Shown here in pieces: positions 31,343 through 53,467 of a stretch of DNA of 64,000 nucleotides. Numbering within the stretch: the first letter of the stretch is position 1; every line of letters begins with the position of its first letter. The translations under genes were made by a program, and so were the position numbers. Below the pieces are notes generated by a model. The model was not told where the DNA came from. It worked only from the letters and a program-made list of their open reading frames with translations, and made no database searches. The stretch spans positions 57,929-121,928 of the forward strand of contig JBBSVN010000002.1 of NCBI GenBank assembly GCA_038046765.1, in the 5' to 3' direction. Source of the stretch: Candidatus Micrarchaeota archaeon (GTDB lineage: Archaea; Micrarchaeota; Micrarchaeia; Anstonellales; Bilamarchaeaceae).

Positions 31343-34024
31343 TTAATTTTCGTAATCTGTTGCGTATCCGCTGCTAAATATTCTCTTACTATTGAAGTAC
31401 AACACATCATTAATTTTTCCATTTTCACTTAATACAAACATTTTAATTGCGGTCGGTTCCTTTGGGGCAAAAACCATTGCGTTTAATGCTCGATAGAACA
31501 CTGCACCGATTCCATTCATTTTCTTTCCTGTACTACAAGAATCTAGAACAATTGTTGGTTTTTTCTTTTTTGTGAAGTACTTTGATAATCCTTTTAACTC
31601 AGCTTCATCTCCTACGTCTAAAAGTCCAAATTCGGGGTTGCTAGGTGTATTGCCAAGTTGTATATCTTTTTCCGTTCCATGACCACCTACAATTAGCGTA
31701 TCTATTTCACCATAGTTTTTGTAAACAAATGGAAATCTACTATAAAATTCTCCTTCATTATTAGCTTGATATACTAATGCTTTATATCCATTCTTCAGCA
31801 TGTTCATTTTTGATCTAGTATCGTAAAATCCACCATTCCAATCTTTTGGCGAAATCATTGCAATCAAAACTGGTTTGTCTCTGTTTGTACCTATTCCTAT
31901 GTTATACTGCAATTCATCAAGAAACTCCGGGCTAAAACCTACGAATCTTGTCAGACCGTTATACTTGTGAATGTACTCTGTTTTTTCCCTTCCTATCGCT
32001 GCAACAGCATAAGCAAAATTGTATCTGTTTTCATTTGTGTTTGGTACATTTGTTTTTTTCATTATTTCCATGGCAATTTCAAGGTCATATAAACCAATTT
32101 GTTTGTGGACATAAAATCTTGCGACATTTTTATTTGGGAATGGGCTTAATAGTTTTTCAAATTTTGGGTCTGTTTTAATCCTTTGGTTAAAATCATCAAA
32201 GTTGGTTGCATGGCCCTCCAAAATCGCATCAATATAATTCGTTACATAAGTTATGCTATATCTCCTATCAATTCTTCTGGTGCTCATGAGTAATTTTGTT
32301 GTATCATCTATGAAAACTTTACTATTATGCATTTTATCGTTATTTTTTTGAATTAAATCATTAAAAGAATGGTAAACATACTCCTGCCAGGTAGAATGGT
32401 TTTTTGTCAAAATTGCTAGCTCCGAAGCATAAACTTCCAAAAAAGATTTAATTTCATCAACGGATGTATTTTGTGCATTGTAAGATATTAGCAATTCTAC
32501 AGTGTGATTAAGTTCTGAGTTTATTCTTCTTACTCCTAGATTATGTTTCATTATAACTGTAAATAAGTCAACCATCTCTGGTTTGAAAGTACCTAGCTTG
32601 ATCGTGTTATCAATAACCCCAAAGTCAAAATATACTCCTCCTTTACTTTGGTTTAATTTTATTATATTTGCGATAACTGCAATTAAATCCTCTTCCTGTT
32701 TTTTATTGGCCCCCTTATTTGCGAGGCTCCAAACTATTTCTCTTGCTCTTTTCATGTGTTTTTGATCTATTTTGCTAAAATCTATTGCTAAAAATTGTTG
32801 TTCTACACTTGATTTATTCTGTTCTGTTTTTCCTTTTTCAGCTTTTGCAACTTCCTTCTCTGGTTTTTTAAGATAAATGTTATTAACAAACTCATCAAAG
32901 CCCTGTGCCTTGTTTTTATCCATCGCATCCAGATATTTGTTTACAAATGCCTGTTCATCACGTTTTCCCATCTTACTAGAATATTCGAATAATTTTTTGG
33001 TATTTTCAACTATCCAGTTTTCACTTTTGTTTTGAATCATCTTATTAAAAATGTAGTAAGGATAAAATTCCTTTGTGGTATGTGTTAATCGTGCCATTTG
33101 CTTTGTGTACATCTTGAAAAAATCTAAAAGTTGAGTTGCATTTAAATTTTCATTTTTTATTACTAGTAAATTTATTGTAAACATTAACTGTGAGTTTATG
33201 TCTCTGCTTCCGTTAATCGTTTGCATTGCAATAGAAAATAGTTCACACATCTCTGGTTTGAAATTAACTGAAGAAATCGTCCTTGCGATTGTATTAAGGT
33301 CGTAATCCCTTTGACCTTGGTTCTTATTAATTTTTATTGTATTTGCAATGACTGCAATAAATTTCTGTTGTTCATCAACTGAGACATTTTTGTAAACTAA
33401 ATTTGCTATGATTTCGTACGCATGTTTCCTATAATTCTTTTCAATCCCGCTAAAGTCCAATCTCTTAGTAGATTCTTCTCCAATTATTTCTACTTTTCTT
33501 GCGAATTCTTCTCTTTCTTCAATCTGTGTTCTATAAAAATCAAGTTTATTATTTATTGATTTGTTGTTTGTACTTAACAAATTTGCAGCCATTTTTTGCG
33601 TTTGTTTCTCTGTTGTGTTTCCAATTCCAATATCGCTGAACATCGTTTTTAGTGCTTTTACTAATTCATCCTTTATTTTTTCTAAGGTCTGGTTTCTTCT
33701 TTTTATTGCTAAATCTTTTGATTTTGAGTCTATCTCATCTTTGACAATTTGTGGATCCAATTCAATTTTAATTTCTTTTTTCAAAACCTTTTGTTTGGCT
33801 TCTTCTGCTTCTCCTTCAATATAGCTTACCTCTACCTCAAAATTTATTTTTAATTTTTCAATCGTAGGAGCTTGTTTTTCCGCTATGACTTGCACTTCAA
33901 GCGGTTTTTCTTCTTTCTTACATCCATAAATCGTAGAAAAAGCTAAAGCCGCAGCTAATGCTTTAGTTTGGGCACTTCTTGCAAGTTTTTGCATCATGCC
34001 TAGCTTTAGCTGGCTATCTTTCAT
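31343..34024 (-). CDS. Large exported (lipo)protein with a duplicated helical domain and a C-terminal caspase-like (clan CD) domain
   Basis: Leader ending AAALAFSTIYG-C; internal repeat starting at aa ~189 and ~414; LIVGGHG…IVLDSCSTG dyad. Confidence 0.7.
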   Translation of the reverse strand: MKDSQLKLGMMQKLARSAQTKALAAALAFSTIYGCKKEEKPLEVQVIAEKQAPTIEKLKINFEVEVSYIEGEAEEAKQKVLKKEIKIELDPQIVKDEIDSKSKDLAIKRRNQTLEKIKDELVKALKTMFSDIGIGNTTEKQTQKMAANLLSTNNKSINNKLDFYRTQIEEREEFARKVEIIGEESTKRLDFSGIEKNYRKHAYEIIANLVYKNVSVDEQQKFIAVIANTIKINKNQGQRDYDLNTIARTISSVNFKPEMCELFSIAMQTINGSRDINSQLMFTINLLVIKNENLNATQLLDFFKMYTKQMARLTHTTKEFYPYYIFNKMIQNKSENWIVENTKKLFEYSSKMGKRDEQAFVNKYLDAMDKNKAQGFDEFVNNIYLKKPEKEVAKAEKGKTEQNKSSVEQQFLAIDFSKIDQKHMKRAREIVWSLANKGANKKQEEDLIAVIANIIKLNQSKGGVYFDFGVIDNTIKLGTFKPEMVDLFTVIMKHNLGVRRINSELNHTVELLISYNAQNTSVDEIKSFLEVYASELAILTKNHSTWQEYVYHSFNDLIQKNNDKMHNSKVFIDDTTKLLMSTRRIDRRYSITYVTNYIDAILEGHATNFDDFNQRIKTDPKFEKLLSPFPNKNVARFYVHKQIGLYDLEIAMEIMKKTNVPNTNENRYNFAYAVAAIGREKTEYIHKYNGLTRFVGFSPEFLDELQYNIGIGTNRDKPVLIAMISPKDWNGGFYDTRSKMNMLKNGYKALVYQANNEGEFYSRFPFVYKNYGEIDTLIVGGHGTEKDIQLGNTPSNPEFGLLDVGDEAELKGLSKYFTKKKKPTIVLDSCSTGKKMNGIGAVFYRALNAMVFAPKEPTAIKMFVLSENGKINDVLYFNSKRIFSSGYATDYEN

Positions 34025-38028: not shown

Positions 38029-39705
38029 ATGTTTATATTTCTCTTTGCTCCTCCTCCAGTTGTTAAAAAAGAGAATGAGAAAGATCAAAAAGAGCCATTT
38101 AATATAAATCTAATTATTCAACAAATCGGTTCAGAAGATTTTAATCAAAAAGTTCTTGCATTAAAAGAAAAACAAAAAACAGAACCCTCCGAATTACTAG
38201 GTCATATCATTAAATTTAGCTCCGCTCTTTTAGGCTATAAAAAAGAAATTGAAACTATAAAAAATAACTTGATAGGAGCTACTCCCTCTACCACTAAAAA
38301 AATTGTTACAGGAATGGGTGGCTCAATTATTGCAGCCTGGGGTGCTATTCCTTATATTTTATCCGAAACCATATCTGCAAAAACAAATCATGTTTCCGTT
38401 GACTATGAAAAAACTAGAAAAGAACTAAGAGAAGTTTTATGGTCTGGATGGGAAATTGGTCGTTTAGAAAAACGTGCTCTTATCCAATTTGAAAAAGCTT
38501 TTGGAGAGTGGGGGGATTCAATAGCTAATACATATACTTTGTATAATAAACTTTCAACTGCTCTACTGCAAAATGATTCTAAATTAATTTCACTAATTTT
38601 GCCTGAATATAATAAAGCAATAAGGTTGATGCAAGTTAAATATGAATATATCGAATACTTGTTTGAACAATATAAATCTGTAGCCAATGAATTAGAAGAT
38701 GCACATATCTTAGCCAAAACATTTATGAAAACTGCAGGTTTGCTATTATCTACAACTTTGATTCCAAATCCATACGAAACAGCTGTCAAACTTAAACAAG
38801 CTAAAAATTTAGTTCCCATATTGAAGGTTGGAAAAACAGGTCGGGCTACTGATGTGGCGTGTGAAATGATTGGAGAATATATTATACCCGCAGTAAAAAT
38901 CAGAGGTCTTTTATTTAGTGCTGCGTTGGTTTTTACGTTTGATCAAAATCAGGTAAGATCAATATTTTCAGCTTGGATGAATAGCCAAGATGTAGCTGTT
39001 ATAAATAACAACGGAAAAGAAGAGACACAAATTATTAAAGAAGGTAAGCTATCCAAATATGTTAAAATTCAAGATGGGTTTGTTACTACAAATACTAATA
39101 TAATTGAAAAAAACGGAAAAAGTTTCTTAGAAACAGATAATGAAACTCCATTACAAATCAAAAAAGCTGGTTTTTCAGACTTTTTAGATGCAATGACTAC
39201 AGGGGTAGTAAAGACCACTGTCGATACAATTGAAATTGGTTTCTTCTTCGGCAATGCTGTAAAATTTGTAAAAATCGGAACAAGAACAATGTTTGGTGGC
39301 TCAGTTAAGATCGTAAGTGAAGATGGCAAAACGATAACTGTATTAGCTAGTAAAATGGCCAAGCTTTCAATAGGACTTGGTACAGATCAAAAAATAATCG
39401 AAGTTCTAGCAAAACAGGGAGTGAATATCGGAAATGAAGAAGTCTTGAAAGTAGTTGGGAAATTAATTACTGATCCAAAAAGAAGCAAAGAAATTTTGCA
39501 GATGCTCCAAGCTATAGATAAAAAAATGACTCGGTCTGCGGCTGAACAAATAGAGAAAATAGTTAAAGAAGGTTTTGAAGAAGCAAAAAAACTTATAAAA
39601 GAAGATTCAGCCGGGAGAATTGGATCTGCAACTAAAAATTTTATAAAACTTGCAGGAGCTGCAACAGGAATAAGTTTTATAATCTCATCTAAGAATGCAT
39701 ATTAA
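38029..39705 (+). CDS. Orphan helical protein (558 aa) with internal hydrophobic segments
   Basis: Long ORF; no recognisable motif. Confidence 0.75.
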   Translation: MFIFLFAPPPVVKKENEKDQKEPFNINLIIQQIGSEDFNQKVLALKEKQKTEPSELLGHIIKFSSALLGYKKEIETIKNNLIGATPSTTKKIVTGMGGSIIAAWGAIPYILSETISAKTNHVSVDYEKTRKELREVLWSGWEIGRLEKRALIQFEKAFGEWGDSIANTYTLYNKLSTALLQNDSKLISLILPEYNKAIRLMQVKYEYIEYLFEQYKSVANELEDAHILAKTFMKTAGLLLSTTLIPNPYETAVKLKQAKNLVPILKVGKTGRATDVACEMIGEYIIPAVKIRGLLFSAALVFTFDQNQVRSIFSAWMNSQDVAVINNNGKEETQIIKEGKLSKYVKIQDGFVTTNTNIIEKNGKSFLETDNETPLQIKKAGFSDFLDAMTTGVVKTTVDTIEIGFFFGNAVKFVKIGTRTMFGGSVKIVSEDGKTITVLASKMAKLSIGLGTDQKIIEVLAKQGVNIGNEEVLKVVGKLITDPKRSKEILQMLQAIDKKMTRSAAEQIEKIVKEGFEEAKKLIKEDSAGRIGSATKNFIKLAGAATGISFIISSKNAY

Positions 39706-39744
39706 TTATTTGTTACATTAAATAAATATCAATTTGGTGATCAT

Positions 39745-41637
39745 ATGACAGAAGGTGGACCAGCATTAGCAACAATTCCAGAACCAGGTAAATTACAAAA
39801 AGTTGTTCAGGAGTACGTATATCATAAAAAACCCGATGCAACCAAAGGGTTTACCGAAGCCCTTAAATCTTACTTTGAGCACACGCAGACATGGAAGCCA
39901 TCTAGTAGCAATAAAGATGCACTGCAAAAAGCAGTTGTAGAAACCGAAGCCCCTCTTGGTATCAAAAATTCAAAAAAAGTTAAAGTTACTTTATTACAAA
40001 AACTAGAACTGCTCAGACCTCTTGCTCATTATACTCCGGAAGAAAAAGAATGGTTCTTTAAGGCTGTTTTTAGTAAATCTGAACCTTACACCGAAAGATT
40101 AGCCCAACTTGTTGGCAGAATGGAATCTCCAAGCGGCATTAAATTAGAAAAAATTCTTGCAGTAGTAAACAAAGATTTTGAACGAGACCCTATAATGAAA
40201 GTTGCAGGTGAGCTCTTTGATGACTTAGTTAACTTTAGTGCTAAGGGAAAAAAGGAAATTACCCAAACCCTAAACGATACGATTACCGTCCTAGTCGGTA
40301 TGCGATTAAAAGGCTTAGTTTCAGAAGGCGTTGTAAGCTCCTTTAGTGTCCGTGCTTCAATAATGCATGCATTTGAACTAAGACAGGATTTTGAAAAAAT
40401 AGTTGGAGAAACTGCTGCAGATGATTTCTTTAGAAAATTAATTAGTTCAAAAAGAACGGGCTCAATTGATGAGTTACTGTCTGAGATGGAAACACAGGTA
40501 AGAAGTGATAAAGTCAAATCAACTCTTTTAGCGATTAAGGATAATTTATCTGCACTAAGCGAATCAAATCTTTCTAAAATCAGATCATTAATTCAATCTT
40601 TAAATCTTTTAGGCTCTCATATAGAAGCTGTTGAGACTACTACAGGTTTAACTGATCAGCTCGATACTCTGCTAAAAGCAGCTAAACTGGCTAAAAGTCC
40701 TGCTGAAAATAAAGTAGCTCAAGAAAGACTATCTAGGTTTATCAAAATTATGGAAGAAAGACTTTCTGATATCCAATTAGAAAGATTAAGTGTATCATCT
40801 ACATTAAGCAAAGCTATTGGCCTCGTAAAAGAAAAGTTAGCTAAAGTACCAAATCTAAAATTACTTCTAGATAATCTCAAAAATCTTGGTTTGGAAGTCG
40901 AATCGATGCTTAATATGAAGGGTCTTTATAAGACAATGCTAGAAGAATCTGCTGAAAAAGGCGGGTTAATGAAAAATATGGGTAGATTCCTTTTTTGGGC
41001 TGCAATTCCGGTTACTGGTCCAGCCTGGGGCCTATGGAAAAGTAGTGTCTATGCCTTTAAAACTAATCCAAAAGTAGGCATGGCAATACTTGGTATAGGA
41101 ACTTTTATTGCAGAAGAAAAATTCTACGGTGGCAGTGGCAAGGCATACTCTTTTATAAGGCAACTATTCCAAGGAAAAGATAAAACGCCAGGTCAGGCTT
41201 CACCAGCAACACCTGCTCCGCTTGTAAGTAAAGCTGATGAAGAGTTAATTGCCAGTGAAGCGATAATAAAACCAACCATGTTGAACGAAACAGAGCGAAC
41301 TTTTCTAAAAACTAATCCGAATATTTTAGCTCTCTTTGAACGTCTTTTAAGAGACATGAAAATAACTGAATTAGATGAAACTAACATCGCTGTAATAAAA
41401 GCTGCTATAACGTATATCAATAAGAATCCTGCAAGAGTGGAAAGGTTTAGCAAGAAGGCAGATGTTAAAGTTTTAGTTTCTGAACTTAAGGAGCAAATGG
41501 AAGCTGGAGAAATGAAAGAGCTGATGGAAATAATTAAACAAGCAATAAAGGAAAAACCCCCGACTATCAAATCTCGTCCAAGTAAAAGAGCTACACCAGC
41601 TAAAAAACCCGAGGAAAAGCCTAAACCACTAAGATAA
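39745..41637 (+). CDS. Orphan helical protein (630 aa) with hydrophobic hairpin and P/K-rich tail
   Basis: GGTGA RBS; FLFWAAIPVTGPAWGLW…VGMAILGIGTFIA. Confidence 0.8.
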   Translation: MTEGGPALATIPEPGKLQKVVQEYVYHKKPDATKGFTEALKSYFEHTQTWKPSSSNKDALQKAVVETEAPLGIKNSKKVKVTLLQKLELLRPLAHYTPEEKEWFFKAVFSKSEPYTERLAQLVGRMESPSGIKLEKILAVVNKDFERDPIMKVAGELFDDLVNFSAKGKKEITQTLNDTITVLVGMRLKGLVSEGVVSSFSVRASIMHAFELRQDFEKIVGETAADDFFRKLISSKRTGSIDELLSEMETQVRSDKVKSTLLAIKDNLSALSESNLSKIRSLIQSLNLLGSHIEAVETTTGLTDQLDTLLKAAKLAKSPAENKVAQERLSRFIKIMEERLSDIQLERLSVSSTLSKAIGLVKEKLAKVPNLKLLLDNLKNLGLEVESMLNMKGLYKTMLEESAEKGGLMKNMGRFLFWAAIPVTGPAWGLWKSSVYAFKTNPKVGMAILGIGTFIAEEKFYGGSGKAYSFIRQLFQGKDKTPGQASPATPAPLVSKADEELIASEAIIKPTMLNETERTFLKTNPNILALFERLLRDMKITELDETNIAVIKAAITYINKNPARVERFSKKADVKVLVSELKEQMEAGEMKELMEIIKQAIKEKPPTIKSRPSKRATPAKKPEEKPKPLR

Positions 41638-41877
41638 TTTTTCCTTAGTCTTTTCTTTATTTTTCCTTTCTTTTTAACTAAAATAATAAAATGCGTCGCA
41701 TTTAACTCCAAAATGCGTTGCAAATCAGTCTGCTTTATGAATTCGGATTTATTCGGCATTTCATATTTTGCCGAATTATGCCGAATTAATCCAACACTAA
41801 AATAATTTAGTACGCTTATTGACGAAATTAAGGAATGTTTTTATATACCTTCTGCTGTAAATAAATAAGCGATTATT

Positions 41878-42459
41878 ATGAAAACCCTCAAAATTCTTGT
41901 AAAAGGAATTGTCCAAAGAGTTGGCTATCGTGCATTTATAGAAAGAGTAGCCAGAAGATTGAAGATAAAAGGAACTGTAAAAAACCTGGCAGATTCTGAA
42001 GAATCTGTTGAAATTATTATTCAACATAAAGACAAATCCGTTATTGAAGAATTTCTTAAATCAATAAATATCAAAACTGAGTTAGTTCATGTTGAACAAA
42101 TTATAAAACAAGAAATTGAACAACCAGAATTTCTAAAGTTTGAAGTTCTGCGTGGTTCTTATGAAGAAGAAAATGCAGAACGATTAGATGTTGCTGCAGC
42201 TCATTTAGATAATTTAACTAAAGAAGTAAGAACTGGTTTTACAGGAGTAAATAATAAATTAGAAAGTATGGATTCAAAGCTAGAAAACATCGATGAAAAA
42301 TTAGAAATGGGATTTTCTGAAATGAATCACGGTTTTTCTGAGTCACATAAAAGACTTGATAAAATTAATGTTACTTTAGAAAAAAGCGTTGTAAGTGAGA
42401 TTGCAGAAATGAAAGAAAAGATTGCAAAAATCGAACAAGTTTTGCATATTAAATCTTAA
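41878..42459 (+). CDS. Acylphosphatase-like domain with C-terminal coiled coil
   Basis: ILVKGIVQRVGYR…IKGTVKNLAD..SVEII, then heptad repeats. Confidence 0.85.
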   Translation: MKTLKILVKGIVQRVGYRAFIERVARRLKIKGTVKNLADSEESVEIIIQHKDKSVIEEFLKSINIKTELVHVEQIIKQEIEQPEFLKFEVLRGSYEEENAERLDVAAAHLDNLTKEVRTGFTGVNNKLESMDSKLENIDEKLEMGFSEMNHGFSESHKRLDKINVTLEKSVVSEIAEMKEKIAKIEQVLHIKS

Positions 42460-42746
42460 CTATACCAGCTACTTTTTAAGTGGTACGAATTGATTAAGTG
42501 CTACGAATTAACTAAGAATTAAAATTACGTCCATTCGCTTCGAAGTTAGGTTAGATAACTCTTCGGCAAATCATTGCTGATTATATTACTTTGCCGAATT
42601 AAAAAGATTATAATTTGATATATTCGGATTATCATAATGCTATCTGCTACTAGCTAGTGGTTACCTTCCATCTGTCACCACACCTTTAAAATACTTTTCG
42701 TACATATATTTATACGGATTATAATACTTAAAAAGGTGAAACTTTC

Positions 42747-44618
42747 ATGGCAGGAGTAGGTGGAACGTTAAAATCTATTGGAGACTGGTTTAGACCTTCT
42801 CAAGCCAGGTTAGAAAAAGAAACTGAAACGAAAGAATTCTTAACTCGAGTTGGAAGGGCACCACTAACCGACTTTTTGGAAGCGCGATCAGGACGCATTG
42901 GTATCTTCACCTCAGAAATAAATACTGTTCTTCCTGGTTATGGAAGTATATTTGTTAGAAGGAGTCTTGCAAGAAAGTTAGGTAGGATTGCAGATGGAGA
43001 GAGAAACATTACATTTACTGGGGAAGAAACACAACATTTCCTTGCACTAGAAAAAGAATATCTAGAAGTTAGAACTTTTCTTGCAGATCAATTAACTACT
43101 ATTGAAGAATACGCTAAATTAAGGTCTGCTGCAAACGGAATTTTTGGAAGCAATACTCTTCGTGGGGGATGGATATTTGGACGACAGGATGTTGAAGAAC
43201 TTTTTCTTCAGGAATGTGGCGCCCGTTCAGATGCTGTTGCTAATGAACTTATAATTAATGTTCAAACCTTGGCTTTTGAACCCGCGGGTGAAGCTACTAG
43301 ATTTATGGATGAACTTAGAGCCATTAGAAGGGAAACTCGAGACGATTTTTTAACTGTAAAAGTTAATTCCTTAGTTGCTAGTCTAAATCCCCATTCCGGG
43401 ATTGATGATGCACTAAACTTACTTAAAAGCGCTATTATTGCTGGATCAGGGAGTACTTTAGGTAGGGCATCTGCAATATCTAATCTCGAAGTTATTTATT
43501 CGGATTATACAACTCATATTGATTCATTTATAGATAATGTTGCGGGAGCAACTCCGCCCCCCGCTGTTTTAACTGCATTGCAAGACAGATATTTAATACT
43601 AAACGATGCATCCATTAGAATTTCTAATTTGTCTGATAATTTAGTTCTTGAAAGAACTGCGTTAAACTCTTCTTTAGCTGGAGAAATGACTGCTTTTAGA
43701 ACTGCAATGGATGGCATGGTTGGCAAATTTTTATCAAGAGAAAAAGGTAGATTTCAGAATCCTGCAAAAAGAGTTGTTGAATTATTTTTAGAATCAAATC
43801 CTGAATTAGTACGGATACTTGGAAGATTGCCTGCAATAAGTGCATCACAACAAGAGATTCAACAAGAAAGAGATCAAAAGAAACTGCTAAGAAGATTAAG
43901 AGATGTGTTATTTCACAAATTTGGGGCGGTTGAAATGGCGGTATTTAGTGCTGTGTTTAGTGTTACTGTTGCCCTATTAGGTCTTGCCATTAAGTTTCCA
44001 ACCCTTCCTGTTTTAGGATATGTCTATAAAACAGAAATAGGACAGTATGCAAAAAAGAAATATCAGGAAAACTTCGGAAAGAAGGAAAAACCAGATTTAA
44101 CTAAAGAAGAAAAAGCGAAATTAGACGCAGAAAATAAATCATTAAAAGATGTAAGTACGATCCCTGTTGAAAAATTAGGCGTAAAACAAAAAGAGTTTTT
44201 ACAAAATAATCAAAAAGCGTGGATTGTTGCACAAATCTATCTATTGAAAAAATATGGATATACTGAAGTATATTCAGAAGAAGAAATAAAAGATTTGAAT
44301 GAAACTTTAGAAAAGATGAGAAACGATGAGCTTGTCAAAGCAATGGATCAAAGACTAAGAATAGGTCCAAAACAATTAACTGAAGCACTTGCCAAACTAA
44401 AAGAACAAAGCGGAATTGAATTAATATTAAGTGCAGATAAATCTGGAACACAAAAACAACAGATAAAACTTGGCAAGAAAGTTGGGACTGATCAACTGGA
44501 AGATCTGTTAAAAAGCCTTGGGTTAGTTGAAAAACCCGTCGAACAAAAACCAGTACAACCTGTAAAAACTAAAAAAGGTCCAGTAGCACCAGCGCCTAAA
44601 CCGGGACGTATGAGATGA
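42747..44618 (+). CDS. Orphan helical protein (623 aa) with hydrophobic segment and P/K-rich tail
   Basis: AGGTGA RBS; AVFSAVFSVTVALLGLAIKFPTLPVLGYVY. Confidence 0.8.
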   Translation: MAGVGGTLKSIGDWFRPSQARLEKETETKEFLTRVGRAPLTDFLEARSGRIGIFTSEINTVLPGYGSIFVRRSLARKLGRIADGERNITFTGEETQHFLALEKEYLEVRTFLADQLTTIEEYAKLRSAANGIFGSNTLRGGWIFGRQDVEELFLQECGARSDAVANELIINVQTLAFEPAGEATRFMDELRAIRRETRDDFLTVKVNSLVASLNPHSGIDDALNLLKSAIIAGSGSTLGRASAISNLEVIYSDYTTHIDSFIDNVAGATPPPAVLTALQDRYLILNDASIRISNLSDNLVLERTALNSSLAGEMTAFRTAMDGMVGKFLSREKGRFQNPAKRVVELFLESNPELVRILGRLPAISASQQEIQQERDQKKLLRRLRDVLFHKFGAVEMAVFSAVFSVTVALLGLAIKFPTLPVLGYVYKTEIGQYAKKKYQENFGKKEKPDLTKEEKAKLDAENKSLKDVSTIPVEKLGVKQKEFLQNNQKAWIVAQIYLLKKYGYTEVYSEEEIKDLNETLEKMRNDELVKAMDQRLRIGPKQLTEALAKLKEQSGIELILSADKSGTQKQQIKLGKKVGTDQLEDLLKSLGLVEKPVEQKPVQPVKTKKGPVAPAPKPGRMR

Positions 44619-46387
44619 TTAAAATGATTAGACATAAACAACTTGCTGCATGCGCTATCGCTACCGTAAGTTTTTTCACTAGTGCAACTAGAAACAAAGA
44701 GCCTAGTTTTAAAAATAGTTTCGTGGTGAATTCCGTTATGGCAGAATCACGTTTAAGATCAGAAGAAGAAGCAATGAAAGACCAAGCCTCAAAAGATGGT
44801 AAAGTGGCAGTAAAAGCACTTATTGAATATTATCGAAACGGCACTATGGCTGCCCGTTCTGAAGCTAATAAATTACTTAGAAAGTATACTATGGAAGGTA
44901 GCAAGTATACTGAAGAATTTTATGGAAAACCTTCTGATTTTGGATCATACGAGCAGCAAAAAAATGCAGGAACTCTTCTTGAAATTCGAGAGGGTGCCAT
45001 AGCTAAAGCTGCAAGAGACGGGGGCAGGCAATCCAATTCCTTAGATTTAATTTCTTATGCAGACGATGTTGTTAACGCTCGTCCTATTCTAGGAGCAAAA
45101 GCATCAAAAACAAAAATATCTGATGTTTTTGTATCTGCATTTGAACGAGCGGATATCGTTCAACTGTTATCCACCTTACAAATCCTAAAAGCTGGGGATC
45201 AAGATAAAGCTGAATTTATAGAAAAAATCCTTGGCAAAAAAGATTCTGACAAAACGGATAATTCTCCAGATGCCAAAGTAAATACTTTAGCAGAATCGCT
45301 CGAATCAGAAATAAAAAAAATGGAAAAACAAATAATTTCAACAGCTGAATCTAAAGGCATGGCGCCACCTGAAAAAATATTTTCAAAAGAACTTGCCCAG
45401 TTACAATCTAAAGCTCCAAAAAATATGTCTAACTTGGATTTAGCGCTCTTAAGGTTAGTTTTTGCACAATACGTCTATAAACAAGCAGAAAAATGTTCGA
45501 AAGATAAAGACTTGGAGATACCAGCTATGCTTTCACCTAATGAAATAAATATACCGTTTAAATCACAACAATCCAAGGCGAATGAAAAAGGTGTAGCTAA
45601 AGATGCAGTTACAAAAATTACAGTTCCTAAAGTTCCAAAACATATTGATGAATTAGAAACCAAACTAGCTTCTGCTGATAAAAAACTTTATGATGATCTT
45701 ATCAAACCCTTATTAAGGAAAAAAGTAACTGGCGTAAATTCCGAATACGAAATATGGGATTTAGAAGGTTTAGTTCAAAAAATCAGTGAGCTTAAATCTG
45801 AAGGTCGTGTTGGTGGAAATCTTTTAACTTGGTTTGAGCAAAGCCTAAAATCAGGAACATTTAGCGACTACATGGATAAAAAAGTTTCATTTAACGCTAC
45901 AAAACTGGCTGATGAATTAGTTCGCGGAAATAATGTTTTAGAAACGCTAGAAGTACTTAACTTAAAGGCTAACCTGGTAATCGGTCAAGCTACAGATGCT
46001 ATTGAAATTCAAAGGACAAAACTAGTAAAAGAAATCGTTCAAAAAGTTTCTAATATGCCTGAATTAAGAACTGAAATTGCAGAAATTCAAATGTCTGAAG
46101 GTGCAACTATGACTTCGGATGATTGGAAGGCTGTTAACTCGCTAAAAAGAGCTTTTATAAAAACTATGGGGAAAAAATCTGAAGAAGGCTTTAACAACGC
46201 TCTTGCACAAGTCGGGCTATCCAGGGAAGATATACTACTTAATACTAATAACTTTGACTATGATTTTGCAAGAATTATCTGTGTCTACACTGCATATAAA
46301 AATGGTAAATGGGCTCAGGTAAGACCAAGCTTCCCTGTAAAGTCTAAAATAAACGAAAGAACAACTAATACTCTTTTTAATGATTAA
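44615..46387 (+). CDS. Orphan exported helical protein (590 aa)
   Basis: Overlaps the upstream stop (ATGA); long signal-like leader ending …VNSVMA-E. Confidence 0.78.
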   Translation: MIKMIRHKQLAACAIATVSFFTSATRNKEPSFKNSFVVNSVMAESRLRSEEEAMKDQASKDGKVAVKALIEYYRNGTMAARSEANKLLRKYTMEGSKYTEEFYGKPSDFGSYEQQKNAGTLLEIREGAIAKAARDGGRQSNSLDLISYADDVVNARPILGAKASKTKISDVFVSAFERADIVQLLSTLQILKAGDQDKAEFIEKILGKKDSDKTDNSPDAKVNTLAESLESEIKKMEKQIISTAESKGMAPPEKIFSKELAQLQSKAPKNMSNLDLALLRLVFAQYVYKQAEKCSKDKDLEIPAMLSPNEINIPFKSQQSKANEKGVAKDAVTKITVPKVPKHIDELETKLASADKKLYDDLIKPLLRKKVTGVNSEYEIWDLEGLVQKISELKSEGRVGGNLLTWFEQSLKSGTFSDYMDKKVSFNATKLADELVRGNNVLETLEVLNLKANLVIGQATDAIEIQRTKLVKEIVQKVSNMPELRTEIAEIQMSEGATMTSDDWKAVNSLKRAFIKTMGKKSEEGFNNALAQVGLSREDILLNTNNFDYDFARIICVYTAYKNGKWAQVRPSFPVKSKINERTTNTLFND

Positions 46388-46506: not shown

Positions 46507-49500
46507 ATGGTTCGTTTCAAAAAATTTATTTCAGTGAGTGTTGCATTAGCAAACTCCGTATTGTCTTTTTCACCTAGCTTTAAAAGATTTGCCAGCCCTG
46601 AATATATAATGACAGCTCAAGCGCAGCCAATCGAAGGGGTAGAAACTAAAACTACACAAGTAGAAAATAAGACTACACAACTAGCAAAGGACGCGCTAAG
46701 AAAAATTGGAGAGTTTGCAATTACTGGGAATAATAAGGATCAAGTTAGCCGTTCTTTTGATGACGGTGATAAAAAGCCTGGTTTTCGAGAAGAGTTTAAA
46801 AAATTAATTAACGAACCCCCTACTGGCAAAGTAGAAGATAAAGAAACTGATGCAATAAAAAACTTACGATCTTTATATGTAGCTATTTTTAGTGACAATC
46901 CTGGTAATATACATTATCTACTTGATGCTTTAGATTCAGCTCATCGAATATTATCTAATAGTAGGCCATCAAGTCAAGTACCGGATTTTACTAAATCTAT
47001 CGAAGAGCAAAAACAAGAAAAATTTAATCATATTAAAATAAATTACTATGGTCAAATACAACTATTTTTAGATTTTGTATCTCTACAAAGGTTACCCAAA
47101 GAGCTAAATATATTATTAAATTCAAAAAGACCTACTGAAGAAGTACAAAAAATCCCTAGCTATAAGCTTGGTCAATTGTATCTTATTGCATCCTTCAATT
47201 TCCATAATCTTAGTTTAGCTGATAGAAAAGAAAGCAAAGACGGTCAGAAGTATTATGCGGTATTGGATGCGTTATACACATATAAAGATCAATCTGAATT
47301 TAAAAAAGGGTTTACAGACAAAGCTACTATAGAAAAATTAGGGGTCTTTGATTCTTTTACTGCTTTTAGTACCGTTTTATCTGAGAGGTATACCTACTAC
47401 AAGGAAAAAGAAAGCGAAAAACTTAGAACCAAACAACGATCTTCCTCTCCTGAATCTTTCCATGAATACTTAAGACTGGGTTTTGATCAAAGAGAAATGC
47501 AAGATATAAAACCAACTAAGAGAACAATTAATACCAAGAGCATTGAAAATCAGGTTATTATTGATCTAACTAAAAAACTAGGAATAATTGGCGTACCTGA
47601 AGATGCTACTCAACAAGTTAGGTTGGAAGCTTTGACAGACTCAATAAAAACACTCTTTAAAACAAATGATCAAAATGCAATTTTAATTACAGAAGCGCTA
47701 TTAAAAGTATACGCTGGACTAGAGGAAACTGATGAAATCAATTTCATAAATTTTATCCAAAAATCCGGTGCTTCTGTTAAATCCAGTATTGCTAGAAGTC
47801 TTGAATTAAATTATAATACAAAAGGTCAAACAACCCCTACAAAAATCGTGCGTCAAACCTTTGAAACTTGGCAAAAAATAGAAGACCAAAAAGTAACTGC
47901 CAGGGAAGAAACCGAAAAAGAATTAAAGCGTTACTCTCTTTACATACAAACAAATACTGCTCAGTTTTTCATAGCTGATTTTGAACAATCACCTGGTGGC
48001 CGAAGTCTTGAAAATATCACAAAGAGGTATGACTTTATTCAAGTCAAATTAAAATATTTATCTGGAGAAGAAACAAAGAATGCTAAGGAAATCAAATCAT
48101 TAGAGTCTGAACGAGCCAATTTATATGGTTGGGTTTTCGGACTTGGAATTCAACTACAAGAAGGTGAAAAACCCTCAACTAAAAATTATCTTAGTGGTCT
48201 TAAGGGCATTTTTTCAACTATTGAAAAAGCTTATTATTTTAATCCCCCCTCCGCCAACTTATCTGCATTATTGGATGGTTTGGAATCAAACACTAAGTTA
48301 AGTCTAATCGCCAGAAAATATGTTTTGAAGCTAGATTCAAACGTTGCGGGCATGTTTACAGAGCTAGATATATCTTCTAAAGATTTCTCAATACAACTTG
48401 GTAAAAAAATGTCTGAAAAATCATCAGAAGAGAAACAAAAGGAAGCTCAAAAAACCTGGACAGAAATTTACTATCCATATGGTTTAACTCTACCTAGTGT
48501 CCAATCACAAACTGGTTTAACTACGCCACAGCAGCAGGCACAACTAAGCAAGGTACAATTATCTGCTCCAAGTTTAGCTGAAATTACTGCGTATGGTCAG
48601 CTAGCTAATTTGACATATTTACAAAAGGAAGCTTTTTACGAATATGTCCAGCAAGCCCAAAGAGCAGGGATTGAAAGCTTAGAAGAAAAAACTTTGGTAA
48701 CAAATACCCTCGTAAAATTAAATGCAATAAATCCATTTCTAACTGTAAAATATCTTTATGCTATAAAACACATTGCAGAATTAACCAAGGATAATCCAAA
48801 TGCATATTTTGAAACTCTCGTGTCATTATCTGCAAATATTAGTGCTCTAACAAGATCTTTGTTTGACCCTACTGGAACAACGCAGTATACTCCTTTAGAA
48901 ATTAGAACTATAATTAGTACGATTAATAATGCTTTTGAAGACATCTTAAAAATTGATGCTTCTGCAATGAGTGTATTTACTAGATATAATCTGCTTGATA
49001 GAAATCTATTTATTGATCCAAATCCTCCTCACGCTATAAGGCAAAGGCCGCCTCTTTGGAAATACCCAATTACTGCAGGACAAGATGCTATTACAGGTAT
49101 CTCTCCTCCGTATCCATTTCCTAACTATCTTCTAAATGTCCCCTATCAACCCGGCTTTGCAAATTTAGGTGGTGTCTATAATTCTACTTATGGCGGTAGT
49201 GTAACATTACCTCAATTTAATATGTTTCAACTGACTCCTGGTGCAGGAATAGTAAAAGCTTCAGTTGAAAATTACATTAGTCCAACTCATCCCATATTAG
49301 GAATAAGTGAATATCTTCCTAGAACATACATTTCTCCCATATCCTATACTGAACTAATAAAAAAAATAAATCAAGCATTTATCTCAACAGAACCCGGTTC
49401 TTATGGGGGAAGAAGAATTGGTACTTCCCTTGGAGGCGGATTGATTGGTACTGGAGCTAAAGAATTAGAAGATTTACAATGGGGTGGAGGTGCACTTGGA

Positions 49501-51927
49501 GCAGCAGTTACAGAAACTGGGGGCTGGGCTCTAGGAGGTTCTTACTCTAAACTTACTGGTACATTCGCAGGAGGAACAATGATTGCTCAACCGATTGGAA
49601 TAATAAAAGACGGAGGAGTAAGAACTGCTTTTGCAGGTTATCAGGATATTGATGAACAAACTGCACGTGGTATTGGTCAAGCAATAATAAATTCTAGGGA
49701 TGACCCTAAGAATCCCAAAAACCTTTTAATATCAGTAAATTATCAAAAAGCATCCCAAGGTACGGTTGGAACAACGAGATGGTTTTATGTTGATAAAGAG
49801 GGTACGATCTACGATTTAAAAGGTGGAATGAATACTTATATCGAGACTCTAAACTATGCTGCAGGATATCATGACAAAAATTTTAATGCGCCGGTTATTG
49901 TTGCATGGAATGTGGAACCTCTCATTAATCGGGGTGGAGGTGCAGTAGTTGCTGGAGAAGGAACACCTATATTAGTTCATGCTCAAGCAGTTCCATACAT
50001 TACTAAAAAAGGCGAAGCTCAACCTCTATTGTTAGAGTGGAATATTGCGGGCGCAACAACTACTCTTAAGACAGAAGATAAAACAAAAATACATCAATTA
50101 GGGTTCCCAGGTAAAATGCTAAGACTACTCCCAACTGGTAGCCCTGTACAAGAACCACAGTATGTTGTTCAAGGAATTGATTATACTATTACAGAGTATG
50201 AAGGAAAAAATGCATCTGAACTTAGCGTTGGTGGCAGTGTAGTAAAAGGACCAACTAATTATGGCGGAACTGGTGGTTTTTTAAGAAAAGTGCAAACACC
50301 CAGCAAAACTTATGGCTACGGTGCATCTTATGAAACTGGGCAAGCAGACCTTGCAGCATTATCTTTGTTACAGCAATCCCAACAAGCAAGAGAATATGTT
50401 GAAAGCATCCATAGAATAGGCTTACTTTTATATGGAAGCCAGACTGATTTAGATCCCGAGGGAAGAAGAAGGAAATTAAGATATGATGAATTTATAATGG
50501 GGGGGTTAGCTAGTGTTATGCCTCAAATAGCCAAACTACAAAATGGTAGCGATGATTATACTGCTTTCTATCGCGGTATAGGATATTTAAGGGGTTTAAA
50601 ATCTATTATAAAATTTGATGTTCAAAGAATGTCTCAATTAGATACTCTCTTAAGTGGTTATGATCGGACTGCGCAGTTAATAAGTCAAGATCCCACTCAA
50701 GCAAATAACTTACTTGATTCATTTAGAAAACAATACATCAGTCAATTTAAAACTATTTTAGATAGTTACTCATTGTCAATCCAAATTGATAAAGATTTTT
50801 CTCTTCAAGGAACATTGCTTGCAACTGAGCCAAATGGAAAAATTGCAAGCCAGTTTGATAATTTAACAAACATTTATGGTCGAGCATTGTACATTTGGGG
50901 AGACAATTTTATTAGACTGTTTGCATCGGTACCCGCATTTGGTGGTATTCAACAAACAACCCAACTTACTTCAAATCAACAGATTGGAGTAGCTGGGGCT
51001 GGTACTGGCTTTGGGGCATTAGACGGATTCTTTTTACAAAGAATAGCTCTTGATGTTGGAGCTGTGATTGCTGCGCAACAAGTCGGAACTCAAACAAAGG
51101 GTAGCAACATTGATACTGCAGGACTTTTTGCACAAGGTGCAGTAAGATTATACTCTAGTATAGCAGACGATGCGAAAAAATACTCTAGTGTAAAAATTTC
51201 ATATTCTAAGTATCTGGAAGCAATTGACAATAATCAGTATTCAAAAATAAGTTCTGACGCAATTGCGTTTATTGTTGAAAAAATCACATCCAAAGACTCT
51301 GACAGTAGGACAATTAGTGATCTTGTCCTTCAAAAAATAAAACAAGGTAACTTTGGTGAAGAACTAACTCCTAGTCAAAAATCTGAACTAAAAGAACAAC
51401 TTTGGGAATGGGTGCAGGATGAACTAAGCAAGGTAGAAACTGAGTTTAATGGCAAAACCAGGTCGTACTTGGCAGGTAGTGTATTCTTATTAGACAATAA
51501 AAAATCTTATTGGGATGCAGGAGCTTTCTTAGAATATGTGGGGAGGGTTCAAGCTTATTTCATAGCCGCTCAAAGAAGTGAAATTAATTTGTTTGCTGGT
51601 TTAGAAGTAATGGGTAAAAGAGGAACTGCAATAAATGTTGTTGGAAGTGCAACTGTTACTGGAAAATTTGAACTTGGAGGGGGAGTTTCAATTAGTTGGA
51701 AACCAGATGAAGATAGTAAGTTAGCATTAACCGGTCTAGTTCGATCTTCTAACCCACAAAACTATTCGGCACCTTACCTAATAAGTCCCGGTTCACCAGG
51801 TAATGCGGGAGTTAGTATATTTATTACTTATACTAAAGGTAGTGGCGGATTAACTCCTGAAGCAGCAAAACAAAGAGCCGAAGGACCAATTACAAATGCA
51901 AATGTATTTGATACTTACCCTAGATAA
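46507..51927 (+). CDS. Giant exported protein (1806 aa): helical N-half, Pro-rich linker, Gly/aromatic amphipathic beta-strand C-half
   Basis: GGTGA RBS; leader ending …MTAQA-Q; many alternating-pattern strands from aa ~965. Confidence 0.85.
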   Translation: MVRFKKFISVSVALANSVLSFSPSFKRFASPEYIMTAQAQPIEGVETKTTQVENKTTQLAKDALRKIGEFAITGNNKDQVSRSFDDGDKKPGFREEFKKLINEPPTGKVEDKETDAIKNLRSLYVAIFSDNPGNIHYLLDALDSAHRILSNSRPSSQVPDFTKSIEEQKQEKFNHIKINYYGQIQLFLDFVSLQRLPKELNILLNSKRPTEEVQKIPSYKLGQLYLIASFNFHNLSLADRKESKDGQKYYAVLDALYTYKDQSEFKKGFTDKATIEKLGVFDSFTAFSTVLSERYTYYKEKESEKLRTKQRSSSPESFHEYLRLGFDQREMQDIKPTKRTINTKSIENQVIIDLTKKLGIIGVPEDATQQVRLEALTDSIKTLFKTNDQNAILITEALLKVYAGLEETDEINFINFIQKSGASVKSSIARSLELNYNTKGQTTPTKIVRQTFETWQKIEDQKVTAREETEKELKRYSLYIQTNTAQFFIADFEQSPGGRSLENITKRYDFIQVKLKYLSGEETKNAKEIKSLESERANLYGWVFGLGIQLQEGEKPSTKNYLSGLKGIFSTIEKAYYFNPPSANLSALLDGLESNTKLSLIARKYVLKLDSNVAGMFTELDISSKDFSIQLGKKMSEKSSEEKQKEAQKTWTEIYYPYGLTLPSVQSQTGLTTPQQQAQLSKVQLSAPSLAEITAYGQLANLTYLQKEAFYEYVQQAQRAGIESLEEKTLVTNTLVKLNAINPFLTVKYLYAIKHIAELTKDNPNAYFETLVSLSANISALTRSLFDPTGTTQYTPLEIRTIISTINNAFEDILKIDASAMSVFTRYNLLDRNLFIDPNPPHAIRQRPPLWKYPITAGQDAITGISPPYPFPNYLLNVPYQPGFANLGGVYNSTYGGSVTLPQFNMFQLTPGAGIVKASVENYISPTHPILGISEYLPRTYISPISYTELIKKINQAFISTEPGSYGGRRIGTSLGGGLIGTGAKELEDLQWGGGALGAAVTETGGWALGGSYSKLTGTFAGGTMIAQPIGIIKDGGVRTAFAGYQDIDEQTARGIGQAIINSRDDPKNPKNLLISVNYQKASQGTVGTTRWFYVDKEGTIYDLKGGMNTYIETLNYAAGYHDKNFNAPVIVAWNVEPLINRGGGAVVAGEGTPILVHAQAVPYITKKGEAQPLLLEWNIAGATTTLKTEDKTKIHQLGFPGKMLRLLPTGSPVQEPQYVVQGIDYTITEYEGKNASELSVGGSVVKGPTNYGGTGGFLRKVQTPSKTYGYGASYETGQADLAALSLLQQSQQAREYVESIHRIGLLLYGSQTDLDPEGRRRKLRYDEFIMGGLASVMPQIAKLQNGSDDYTAFYRGIGYLRGLKSIIKFDVQRMSQLDTLLSGYDRTAQLISQDPTQANNLLDSFRKQYISQFKTILDSYSLSIQIDKDFSLQGTLLATEPNGKIASQFDNLTNIYGRALYIWGDNFIRLFASVPAFGGIQQTTQLTSNQQIGVAGAGTGFGALDGFFLQRIALDVGAVIAAQQVGTQTKGSNIDTAGLFAQGAVRLYSSIADDAKKYSSVKISYSKYLEAIDNNQYSKISSDAIAFIVEKITSKDSDSRTISDLVLQKIKQGNFGEELTPSQKSELKEQLWEWVQDELSKVETEFNGKTRSYLAGSVFLLDNKKSYWDAGAFLEYVGRVQAYFIAAQRSEINLFAGLEVMGKRGTAINVVGSATVTGKFELGGGVSISWKPDEDSKLALTGLVRSSNPQNYSAPYLISPGSPGNAGVSIFITYTKGSGGLTPEAAKQRAEGPITNANVFDTYPR

Positions 51928-51946: not shown

Positions 51947-52363
51947 TTGAAATTAGAATTTTTAGATTTTGAAACATGTGAAGTAAGGAAAGTTAGTCAA
52001 CCCGTATTAGAATCAATAGATACTAATATTTCAATAAATATGGCCACGCTCGAAAAAAATGTTCTAAAACTTGAATTTCTATATTCAACAAAATACGCTC
52101 CTGGGGGAGGTTTCATTCGGATTTCTGGTAAAGCCGACTTTAGCGGTTCAGAATCAAAAGTCGCATATGAAGAATGGAAAAAAACAAAACAAATAATGGG
52201 GGTTCTTGGAGAACAAATTGTTAATACTATTAATTATAGTGCCTCAATAAATGCAGCCTTCATTGCACGTGTATTTAATCTAACTCCTCCCATAGTCCCA
52301 CCTACAATAAGGTTTCAACAGCCAGTAAAGCAAATGATGCCAGCAGGTAAAAGTAAAAAATAG
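51947..52363 (+). CDS. Hypothetical protein, SecB-like fold suspected
   Basis: Four strands plus a helix and terminal NLTPPIVPP. TTG start after AGGTGG. Fold call is inference. Confidence 0.65.
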   Translation: MKLEFLDFETCEVRKVSQPVLESIDTNISINMATLEKNVLKLEFLYSTKYAPGGGFIRISGKADFSGSESKVAYEEWKKTKQIMGVLGEQIVNTINYSASINAAFIARVFNLTPPIVPPTIRFQQPVKQMMPAGKSKK

Positions 52364-52375
52364 CGTGAAAAACCT

Positions 52376-53089
52376 ATGTCACAACTTCCTCCGCTTGGTG
52401 TCGATAAGGACAATCCAATCTTAAAAAAGAACAAGTTCTCAACGGGCATTAGTGACCTGGATATTGTAATGGAAGGAGGTTACTCAAATCCATCTAATAT
52501 TCTTCTTATAGGTCCAACCGGAATGGAAAAAAGTGCAATGGCATTTAGTTTTGCTGCATCTAAACTAGAAAATGAAATACTAATTTTTATTACAACTGAT
52601 GCAAATGCACAAACAATAAAAGAAAAAGCGGCTTCAATAGGAATTAAGTTACCTAAAGACACTATCTTTATTGATTGTTACACTAATAATACAAATGCGC
52701 TTCCAGAACAAGAAAACATTCTTTACATGGGCGGAGCAAGTGCATTAGAAGATTTTTCCGTAACAATAAAAGAAATTCTAGAAAAGAACATTGGTAAAAA
52801 ATTCAGGGTAGTTTTCCACACATTTTCAACATTTCTTCTTTACAATAATAAAGATTCAATGCTAAAATTTCTCCAGGTTGTCGGGGGCAGACTTAAAAAT
52901 GCAAATGCTACAACCTTGATTTTAGTAGAAGAAGGTGTTCATGACAAGCAACTTATTAGTACGATTCTGCGTTATGTAGATGAACCTATAAGTCTTGTAG
53001 ATAAGGGGGCAGGTGCATTTAGTATTGACTTTCAAAATGGTCTGCAATTACCAGTTAAACTTGGATTAAATGGGATTAATGTAATATAA
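52376..53089 (+). CDS. KaiC/RAD55-family RecA-fold ATPase (degenerate motifs)
   Basis: STGISDLDIVMEGG, LIGPTGMEKS, RVVFHTFST. Confidence 0.88.
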   Translation: MSQLPPLGVDKDNPILKKNKFSTGISDLDIVMEGGYSNPSNILLIGPTGMEKSAMAFSFAASKLENEILIFITTDANAQTIKEKAASIGIKLPKDTIFIDCYTNNTNALPEQENILYMGGASALEDFSVTIKEILEKNIGKKFRVVFHTFSTFLLYNNKDSMLKFLQVVGGRLKNANATTLILVEEGVHDKQLISTILRYVDEPISLVDKGAGAFSIDFQNGLQLPVKLGLNGINVI

Positions 53090-53128
53090 TCTTTGATGCA
53101 TATAATTCTTTGATGGGTTGATAAATAA

Positions 53129-53467
53129 ATGGACGAAATAAATACTGCGTTTATTGAAAATGTTTTAAATGAGCTTAAAGATAAGGAGATACGCTCTGCG
53201 CTTATAAGACAGGATGGCTTAATCATCTCCTCAAATTTTGCGCTTGAAGAAGCAGGAGCAAATGTTGTCTCAACAATTGTAAACACCAGTGATGCACTTT
53301 TAAAACAATTTAAGGATAAACAGAAGGAAATGGAAATTGTCCTTGGTAGCACTTCCTTTTTTGTCGTTCATACTGGCACCTTTATACTCTGTACTATACT
53401 AAAAAACAAGGATCAGAAACAATTTGTGCGCGATTACGTAATTAAACTTAAAACTGAATTAAAATAA
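53129..53467 (+). CDS. Roadblock/LC7-like protein
   Basis: VLNELKDKEIRSALIRQDGLIISSNF. Confidence 0.8.
   Translation: MDEINTAFIENVLNELKDKEIRSALIRQDGLIISSNFALEEAGANVVSTIVNTSDALLKQFKDKQKEMEIVLGSTSFFVVHTGTFILCTILKNKDQKQFVRDYVIKLKTELK

Follow-up and report, generated by a model that had tools for sequence, protein, structure and literature searches.

The giant gene and its small neighbour

The window analysed here is a 64,000-nucleotide stretch of contig JBBSVN010000002.1 from a Candidatus Micrarchaeota archaeon. At 46507..51927 on the plus strand it carries a gene for a protein of 1806 amino acids (aa), referred to below as the giant, whose C-terminal half is predicted to be a very large beta-barrel of outer-membrane type. 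The gene is present in a single copy in the 1.5-Mb source genome (G000; 89.7% complete). Its open reading frame (ORF), for which orthologues were found, is genuine and conserved, and it contains all eight of the peptides on which an earlier reading of the sequence, the original prediction, had based its case for a barrel. Contigs of sequencing run X3 align over the gene with no indels (a stretch at 51735-51812 is uncovered), and the scattered 1-2-base indels seen in contigs of run X4, at a depth of about 4, were treated as errors. Among the matches listed, holders of the locus with a habitat on record are groundwater metagenomes, and none of the holders is an RNA dataset. An Rfam scan of the window gave no match.

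The N-terminal half of the giant shows helical periodicity, in line with the large helical part originally proposed there, and the C-terminal half shows a two-residue periodicity that peaks at aa 1650-1780. The first 40 residues (46507..46626) make up an extended export leader with a basic n-region, a weak h-region (best 19-residue mean hydropathy 1.41) and an F-K/R...M-A motif conserved in family members, and from these features we infer export. The leader is a pattern and no proven signal, given that a hidden Markov model (HMM) of it, partly mis-anchored, ranked the giant itself at E 0.56, behind one control match at E 0.11. A variable helical region follows (aa 41-689; 46627..48573), of which the AlphaFold2 model covers only aa 600-689 and in which aa 46-400 are poorly conserved (majority conservation 0.19). 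Next comes a conserved helical domain (aa 690-835; 48574..49011; majority conservation 0.50), modelled mostly at a predicted local distance difference test score (pLDDT) of 80-92 and probably located on the short-turn side of the barrel. It runs into a conserved Pro-rich linker (aa 823-965; 48973..49401).

The predicted strands occupy aa 970-1778 (49414..51840), in agreement with the span 49395..51850 first proposed for the barrel, and the Pro-rich linker and three helical insertions described at that time are all present. In the longer of our two structural models (model 2, below) the insertions are an insert after strand 19 on the long-loop side (aa 1282-1299; 50350..50403), a helical hairpin after strand 23, also on the long-loop side (aa 1377-1413; 50635..50745), and a 100-residue helical insert after strand 30 on the short-turn side (aa 1552-1647; 51160..51447). 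Beyond the last strand lies a Gly/Pro-rich tail of 28 residues (51841..51927), which by sequence and conservation has no C-terminal aromatic beta-signal of the kind carried by proteins that depend on the machinery for beta-barrel assembly (BAM). All of these features lie on the plus strand.

A dedicated partner gene of 138 aa (51947..52363, plus strand), with a TTG start and AAGGTGGT upstream, begins 19 bases past the giant's stop codon. Its association with the giant is supported by synteny, by clade and by a profile. The partner orthologue directly follows the giant in 14 of 15 loci and in 3 of 4 further ones, the two exceptions being contig ends, and these orthologues form one clade (support 100/98). 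Distribution across the phylum was surveyed in 401 Micrarchaeota genomes, comprising the source genome and 400 others. At E<=1e-30, a profile of the partner clade, built from 16 of the 18 genomes that it matches, found 18/401 genomes, all with a giant of the same family (family A), and nothing between 1e-30 and 1e-48. The partner paralogue lies next downstream of the giant in 18 of the 20 family-A genomes and is absent from every surveyed genome that lacks one. The wider family of the partner protein is present in 53 of the 61 genomes of the class, and the partner is, judging from these sequence comparisons, a family-A-specific paralogue of a near-universal Micrarchaeota protein. A correlation between giant and partner distances (rho 0.40, 13/1000 permutations, 17 pairs) was left unused because kin share distances.

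Predicted structure of the C-terminal half

Two AlphaFold2 models were made from 48 sequences each, model 1 on aa 940-1806 and model 2 on aa 600-1790. The conclusions below draw on strand listings, confidence values and alignment ranges. Model 1 (pLDDT 73.7; predicted template modelling score, pTM, 0.59) has 36 long strands and one short, and model 2 (pLDDT 80.0, pTM 0.81) has 38 antiparallel strands at aa 970-1778, the rise in pTM coming with the addition of the linker and the helical domain. The two counts differ at aa 1036-1063, which model 2 folds as a hairpin (pLDDT 67-89) and model 1 as a short strand and a helix (43-48), and on these predictions we favour 38 strands over 36. The strands follow one another as the even-numbered, up-and-down antiparallel meander of outer-membrane-type barrels. 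With an assumed shear of 42-46, the barrel radius would be ~35 Å (about 70 Å across). The soluble solenoid, propeller and S-layer folds that had been named beforehand as incompatible with a barrel arose in neither model, and both models rule them out.

Fold searches with the models returned TonB-dependent transporters, Occ porins, ushers, LptD, BamA, VDAC and Tom40, at Z up to 15.8 (model 1) and 13.7 (model 2), a root-mean-square deviation (rmsd) mostly of 5-11 Å and identities of 3-13%. In the wide searches, where counts refer to the 50 rows listed for each, membrane barrels made up 50/50 rows for model 1 (best Z 15.1) and 46/50 for model 2 (best Z 12.3), and the remaining four rows were designed helical proteins aligned to N-terminal residues only. 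The matches are partial fits by smaller barrels, none equal in size, and at the level of models they indicate a class and no family. ApoB100 was also among the fold matches (9coo, Z 13.2, rmsd 18; 9e9r), a sign that a sheet may be both curved and amphipathic without crossing a membrane. What stands of the claim of a very large beta-barrel is a beta-meander curved like outer-membrane barrels; closure of the ring is predicted at most, and the aromatic girdles by which such a barrel was expected to show itself went undetected. Judged by computation alone, it is very probable that the giant is a membrane barrel of some kind.

The alternating polarity that first drew attention to the region is above chance overall. 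The difference between strand faces in family-conserved hydrophobicity is 0.284 on the model-1 strands, against 0.202 +/- 0.024 in 20,000 shuffles (p=0.00065), and 0.255 against 0.194 on the model-2 strands (p=0.0055). A crude single-sequence score picked out 12 strands against 6.3 +/- 2.2, a result reached by 3 of 300 shuffles. The signal is carried mainly by the last 15 strands (0/5000 shuffles). When the better face of each strand is selected, its best five positions are hydrophobic or Gly and nearly uncharged in 35 of the 38 strands. Neighbouring strands also covary (2.54 versus 1.67, p=1e-5). The loops of model 2 have an asymmetry of outer-membrane type, with a median of 7 residues after odd strands and 3 after even ones; on this pattern the two termini, like the 100-residue insert, would lie on the periplasm-like side.

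For model 1, 9 of the 50 rows listed match closed barrels over a span that starts at model residue 25-33 and ends at 839-840, that is, from the first strand to the last, one example being the porin 1bh3 (227 residues, rmsd 5.9), so strands 1 and 36-37 must be near each other. The same alignments suggest that model 1 is pinched. A complex prediction of strands 1-12 with strands 31-38 scored 0.00, which is no verdict and was counted neither way. Model 2 shows the Pro-rich linker as ordered (10-residue blocks at pLDDT 55-93), and the conservation of the linker matches that of the barrel (0.49 versus 0.46-0.53). Ten plug-bearing receptors begin to align at model-2 residues 218-248 with residues of their plugs, for example BtuB at its residue 14 and FecA at its residue 81, in alignment ranges that give end points only. 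The linker is therefore read as a probable plug of the lumen. Closure, plug position, membrane insertion and topology are all inferred from the models.

Distribution, a sister family and other envelope genes

HMMER searches of 1.84 billion representatives gave 46 matches to the giant, 35 of them at E<=1e-30, with full-length homologues of 1295-2223 aa at 30-40% identity. Those that bear names belong to Candidatus Micrarchaeota, the host phylum originally proposed. A word-index search found no relatives, and its sensitivity is low, since HMMER gives 46. The giant has no match in Pfam, including SLH and other wall-binding domains and the S-layer domain, and none in NCBIfam or PDB sequence searches; three homologues and three proteins of the sister family described below have none in Pfam at a useful level. 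The best ESM Atlas leads are all below 0.9 (IAT_beta 0.81, Porin_4 0.80), and comparison of the profile with itself detected no internal repeat. In two assemblies the family-A gene is split into two ORFs (L025:9377-14348 in G214 and L038:4818-9317 in G294).

A 17-sequence profile of the giant's family matched 25 of the 401 genomes, namely the source genome, 22 of 75 in its own family, and a single genome in each of two others (of 17 and 6 genomes). It matched none in the two largest other Micrarchaeota families (94 and 83 genomes). Of these 25 genomes, 20 belong to family A, whose orthologues occur in 19 of the 400 other genomes, and 5 are weak matches to a sister family, B.

By hhalign, family A is homologous to family B (99.3%, E 3.4e-20, 505 columns) over aa 920-1472, which covers the linker and strands 1-27. 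The B giants (1370-3060 aa), undescribed and from the same Micrarchaeota family, share the leader type of family A, but their last residue is W or F and they lack the tail of family A. Among the 75 genomes of the family, 18 carry A, 24 carry B (E<1e-20) and 1 carries both, a count that leaves out one more weak match and a second B-like giant in G109 that the profile missed. Chance would give an overlap of ~6 genomes, with the caveat that kin are not independent, and the two distributions appear largely complementary. A small gene of the partner's wider family lies within ~3 kb of the family-B gene in 5 of 6 loci. Three further loci are of note. In G384 (L058:8411-19998) a family-A and a family-B giant are convergent, with both small paralogues in between. 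In G109 (L030:3658-14884) two different giants share a 162-residue N-terminus at 97% identity, each next to its own small-gene paralogue, which suggests a recent leader exchange. In G177, from another family (L091), a member of the small-gene family sits between two ORF ends with classic barrel-like strands, unmatched by the family-B profile.

Three more exported-looking, strand-rich, barrel-like orphans of 266, 526 and 697 aa are known from their sequences in the source genome. The 266-aa protein (G000:C2:19162-19959, minus strand; L062:2163-2960) has a signal-like start, an amphipathic strand run and a Phe-terminated last strand, and no Pfam match; it looks like a small outer-membrane barrel. 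The 526-aa protein (G000:C11:6993-8570, plus strand; P0051) repeats the giant's layout in miniature, with a signal, a helical part, a Pro linker and a strand-rich C-terminal half. Neither of these two found a relative in 98 genomes of the family when used as a single-protein query. The 697-aa protein (C8:33217-35307), strand-rich in its C-terminal half, is adjacent to a 709-aa orphan (the pair at G000:C8:33217-37451, minus strand; L060), and both have the giant's leader type.

The extended-leader pattern, which is partly circular in having been written from these same families, gave 4 matches in 1477 ORFs and 0 in 845 internal controls. Three of the four are the giant, the 709-aa protein and a 590-aa protein encoded just upstream of the giant (44615..46387, plus strand), whose homologues stand beside the giant in 2 of 15 loci. 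Further upstream on the same strand (38029-44618) are three helical orphans (558-630 aa), two of them with a hydrophobic stretch late in the chain and a tail rich in Lys and Pro, and among the three an acylphosphatase with a coiled-coil tail (41878-42459). Downstream of the partner, at 52376-53467 (plus strand), a KaiC-like ATPase is followed by a 112-aa protein that we take to resemble a roadblock/GAP domain, with no Pfam match. On the minus strand, 31343-34024 encodes an 893-aa orphan with a lipoprotein-like signal, an internally duplicated helical part and, towards the C-terminus, a His-Gly/Ser-Cys pattern that presumably recalls a caspase-like peptidase, again with no Pfam match.

Possible roles and likeness to known barrels

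Beta-barrels of outer-membrane type are regarded as characteristic of diderm bacteria and of their organelles. The reading that we prefer, at a probability of about 0.45, is that the giant is a monomeric, exported, plugged transmembrane barrel of 36-38 strands in an outer membrane, acting as a gated conduit for macromolecules. It would cross the cytoplasmic membrane via Sec by means of its extended leader, and the co-encoded 138-aa protein would serve as its private chaperone or cofactor and keep the chain competent. It would then fold into the second membrane of this Micrarchaeota family as one wide barrel of ~70 Å, corked by its own Pro-rich linker, and both its helical N-terminal part and its C-terminal tail would face the periplasm. 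The conduit's cargo might be other envelope proteins that bear the leader, which it would export or insert as bacterial SprA or BamA do theirs. The gene, its conservation, the strand meander, the likeness to outer-membrane barrels and the coupling to the partner were computed here; the translocon function and the chaperone role are the weakest parts of the proposal, drawn by analogy of size only. A bolder version seems unlikely to us, namely a true outer membrane with its own barrels, in which the 38-strand barrel of families A and B would be a non-Omp85 export and insertion machine that recognizes the F-K...M-A leader, is assisted by a SecB-like chaperone of its own and has a lateral gate at a weak seam between strands 1 and 38. 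If true, the A/B barrel would be the largest single-chain barrel known, and archaea would have solved the biogenesis of outer-membrane proteins independently.

Several results limit the case for the conduit or weigh against it. Two-facedness falls short of significance in strands 1-12 (p=0.32) and in strands 13-22 (p=0.16) when each set is taken alone, charge differs between the faces no more than by chance (p=0.51), and the aromatic fraction stays at 0.11-0.16 in five bins along the strands, with strand ends serving as only a rough proxy for the membrane boundary. Covariation between strands 1 and 38 (1.85) is at background, and 37% of distant pairs score as high; the seam is uninformative in this respect because 14 of the 37 true strand neighbours score <=1.9. 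None of the 50 rows in either of two model-2 listings spans both ends. SprA fits model 1 poorly in an end-to-end alignment (397 residues, Z 9.3, rmsd 12.7), as does SlpA (Z 9.2, rmsd 12.0), and the absence of SprA chain A from the 50 rows listed for model 2 excludes nothing. PF01103 (Omp85/BamA) was not found in the 89.7% complete source genome, in a search whose control matched 7 of 14 genomes. The genome does encode an S-layer protein of 948 aa (G000:C6:87026-89869, minus strand; Pfam S_layer_C, E 3.4e-16) and has another S_layer_C match at C3:28720-29025. Taken together, the two giant families reach only 41 of the 75 genomes of the family, which is patchy for an essential machine. Finally, the partner looked SecB-like to us, and the sequence tests do not support this. 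DUF1149 is found on 13% of the members of its Atlas cluster (score 0.88), a weak lead only, through the fold link between DUF1149 and SecB. The partner matched neither PF02556 nor bacterial SecB profiles, and its hhalign probability against SecB (only 5 SecB sequences) was 0.2-0.3%, the same as that of the reversed control.

The literature on an outer membrane in Micrarchaeota conflicts. Reports describe two membranes in ARM-1 by transmission electron microscopy (PMC8784108) and in ARMAN cells by cryo-electron tomography (PMC4243693, PMC8871954). Later tomography identifies the outer layer of Micrarchaeon ARM-1 as an S-layer (PMC11329633), a further point against an outer-membrane location; the same paper reports an unassigned barrel-shaped docking complex of 21 nm, which is far wider than one giant-type barrel. 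The argument from two membranes in ARMAN, on which the original prediction leaned, is weak, with a giant almost confined to its own family, none in the 94 and 83 genomes of the largest others and an S-layer around ARM-1. Its reading as an outer-membrane channel or translocon, or as a host pore, is partly supported: the likeness to the barrel class held up in the fold searches, and the membrane location is a prediction at most.

Other explanations are possible for the same data. First, the barrel could be a structural element of an outer membrane, with a helical part that spans the periplasm and tethers the outer layer in the manner of Deinococcus SlpA, and with passive permeability at most. 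SlpA (8agd) has the highest TM-score among the listed Foldseek rows (0.23 for model 1 and 0.22 for model 2), the N-terminal part of the giant is long and helical, and long helical genes adjoin it. However, those TM-scores are too low for kinship, no SLH or other wall-binding domain is found by Pfam in the giant, and a linker conserved like the barrel suggests gating, and we hold this explanation to be improbable.

Second, a single-membrane cell with an S-layer could place a closed barrel in the membrane of a host or prey, or in a contact junction, where the helical stalk would tether it and the plug would gate the uptake of host contents. The S-layer gene, the lack of an Omp85 match, the patchy distribution of A or B and an N-terminal region highly variable in length and sequence are consistent with such a pore. 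Known host-inserting beta-pores, on the other hand, are oligomers of small protomers and not one chain, the giant has no C-terminal helical membrane anchor (best 19-residue hydropathy 1.41), and the further barrel-like exported proteins resemble a resident outer-membrane set. Bridges between DPANN cells and hosts are reported in PMC11329633, and even so a host pore strikes us as doubtful.

Third, there may be no transmembrane barrel at all, and the strands may instead form an amphipathic belt, open or closed, around the linker and lipid on its concave side, as in ApoB, or a soluble cage beneath the S-layer. The ApoB100 match, the non-significant two-facedness of strands 1-22 and the missing girdle fit such a belt. 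Against it stand the nearly uncharged selected face of 35 strands, the loop asymmetry, the model-1 alignments that link first and last strand and the terminal aromatic residue of family B, which together leave it quite improbable. Lastly, two smaller barrels or a pinched, two-lobed one (~20-22 and 16 strands) in place of one wide pore is very improbable: residues 131-537 of model 1 do fit 18-24-strand barrels (rmsd 5-8), 16-18-strand porins fit both ends together, and double-barrel miscounts occur among bacterial predictions (bioRxiv 10.64898/2026.03.07.710327), but the better model 2 has a lower best Z in the wide searches (from 15.1 to 12.3) and a higher rmsd for most of the same chains, as for a wider ring, and the set that joins the ends is non-contiguous in sequence.

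Literature searches, in which most subscription papers and all supplements were outside the scope, gave no description of such a barrel in Micrarchaeota, and the available parts of PMC6349945, PMC8561730 and PMC4361572 hold nothing on barrels; as far as searched, the giant is undescribed. New here are the 38-strand model at pTM 0.81 with an ordered linker, the strict coupling to a partner and the complementarity of A and B. The original prediction did not include the dedicated gene just downstream, the linker's probable function as a plug, family B or the genome's further barrel-like proteins. If the prediction holds, the giant would be a sign that a small groundwater archaeon has a membrane and export system that had gone unrecognised, its conserved barrel of 36-38 strands would equal or exceed the size record, the disputed second membrane of these archaea would gain named molecular markers, and barrel insertion without BamA would become directly testable. 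Were the barrel to act in a host membrane, it would offer a candidate means by which DPANN cells draw on their hosts.

The preprint bioRxiv 10.64898/2026.03.07.710327 names SprA, at 36 strands, as the largest barrel known, gives SlpA 30 strands and sets aside rare 38- and 40-strand labels in bacterial models as errors or unlikely. Like the barrel predicted here, SprA/Sov, the type IX translocon of Bacteroidota (6h3i), is a single-chain barrel with a similar strand count and large insertions, and the two have no sequence similarity in Pfam, NCBIfam or PDB searches. SprA uses separate Plug and PorV proteins, whereas the giant's putative plug lies within the same chain and its archaeal host has no Omp85 match. 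TonB-dependent transporters (BauA 6h7f, FptA 1xkw, FecA 1kmo, BtuB 1nqe) score among the highest in Z (model 1, up to 15.1; model 2, 12-13.7) and have an N-terminal segment in the plug position, as the giant's linker would have by alignment. They are 22-stranded, against the 36-38 predicted here, share 4-10% identity with the giant and differ from its Pro-rich, mostly irregular plug. In Deinococcus SlpA/SDBC (8agd, 7zgx) a long N-terminal part accompanies the barrel, and the cell bears an S-layer as well; this protein differs in its fewer strands, its SLH domain and its lack of sequence similarity. The ushers FimD and PapC and LptD, large plugged assembly channels of 24 and 26 strands, give the partial fits of lowest rmsd (4.9-5.9 Å over 234-273 residues), with only strands 6-27 of the giant aligned and no family match. 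By strand count, sequence, beta-signal and BamA, the giant is outside every named barrel family, and at the level of the predicted fold it resembles the known barrels of outer membranes.

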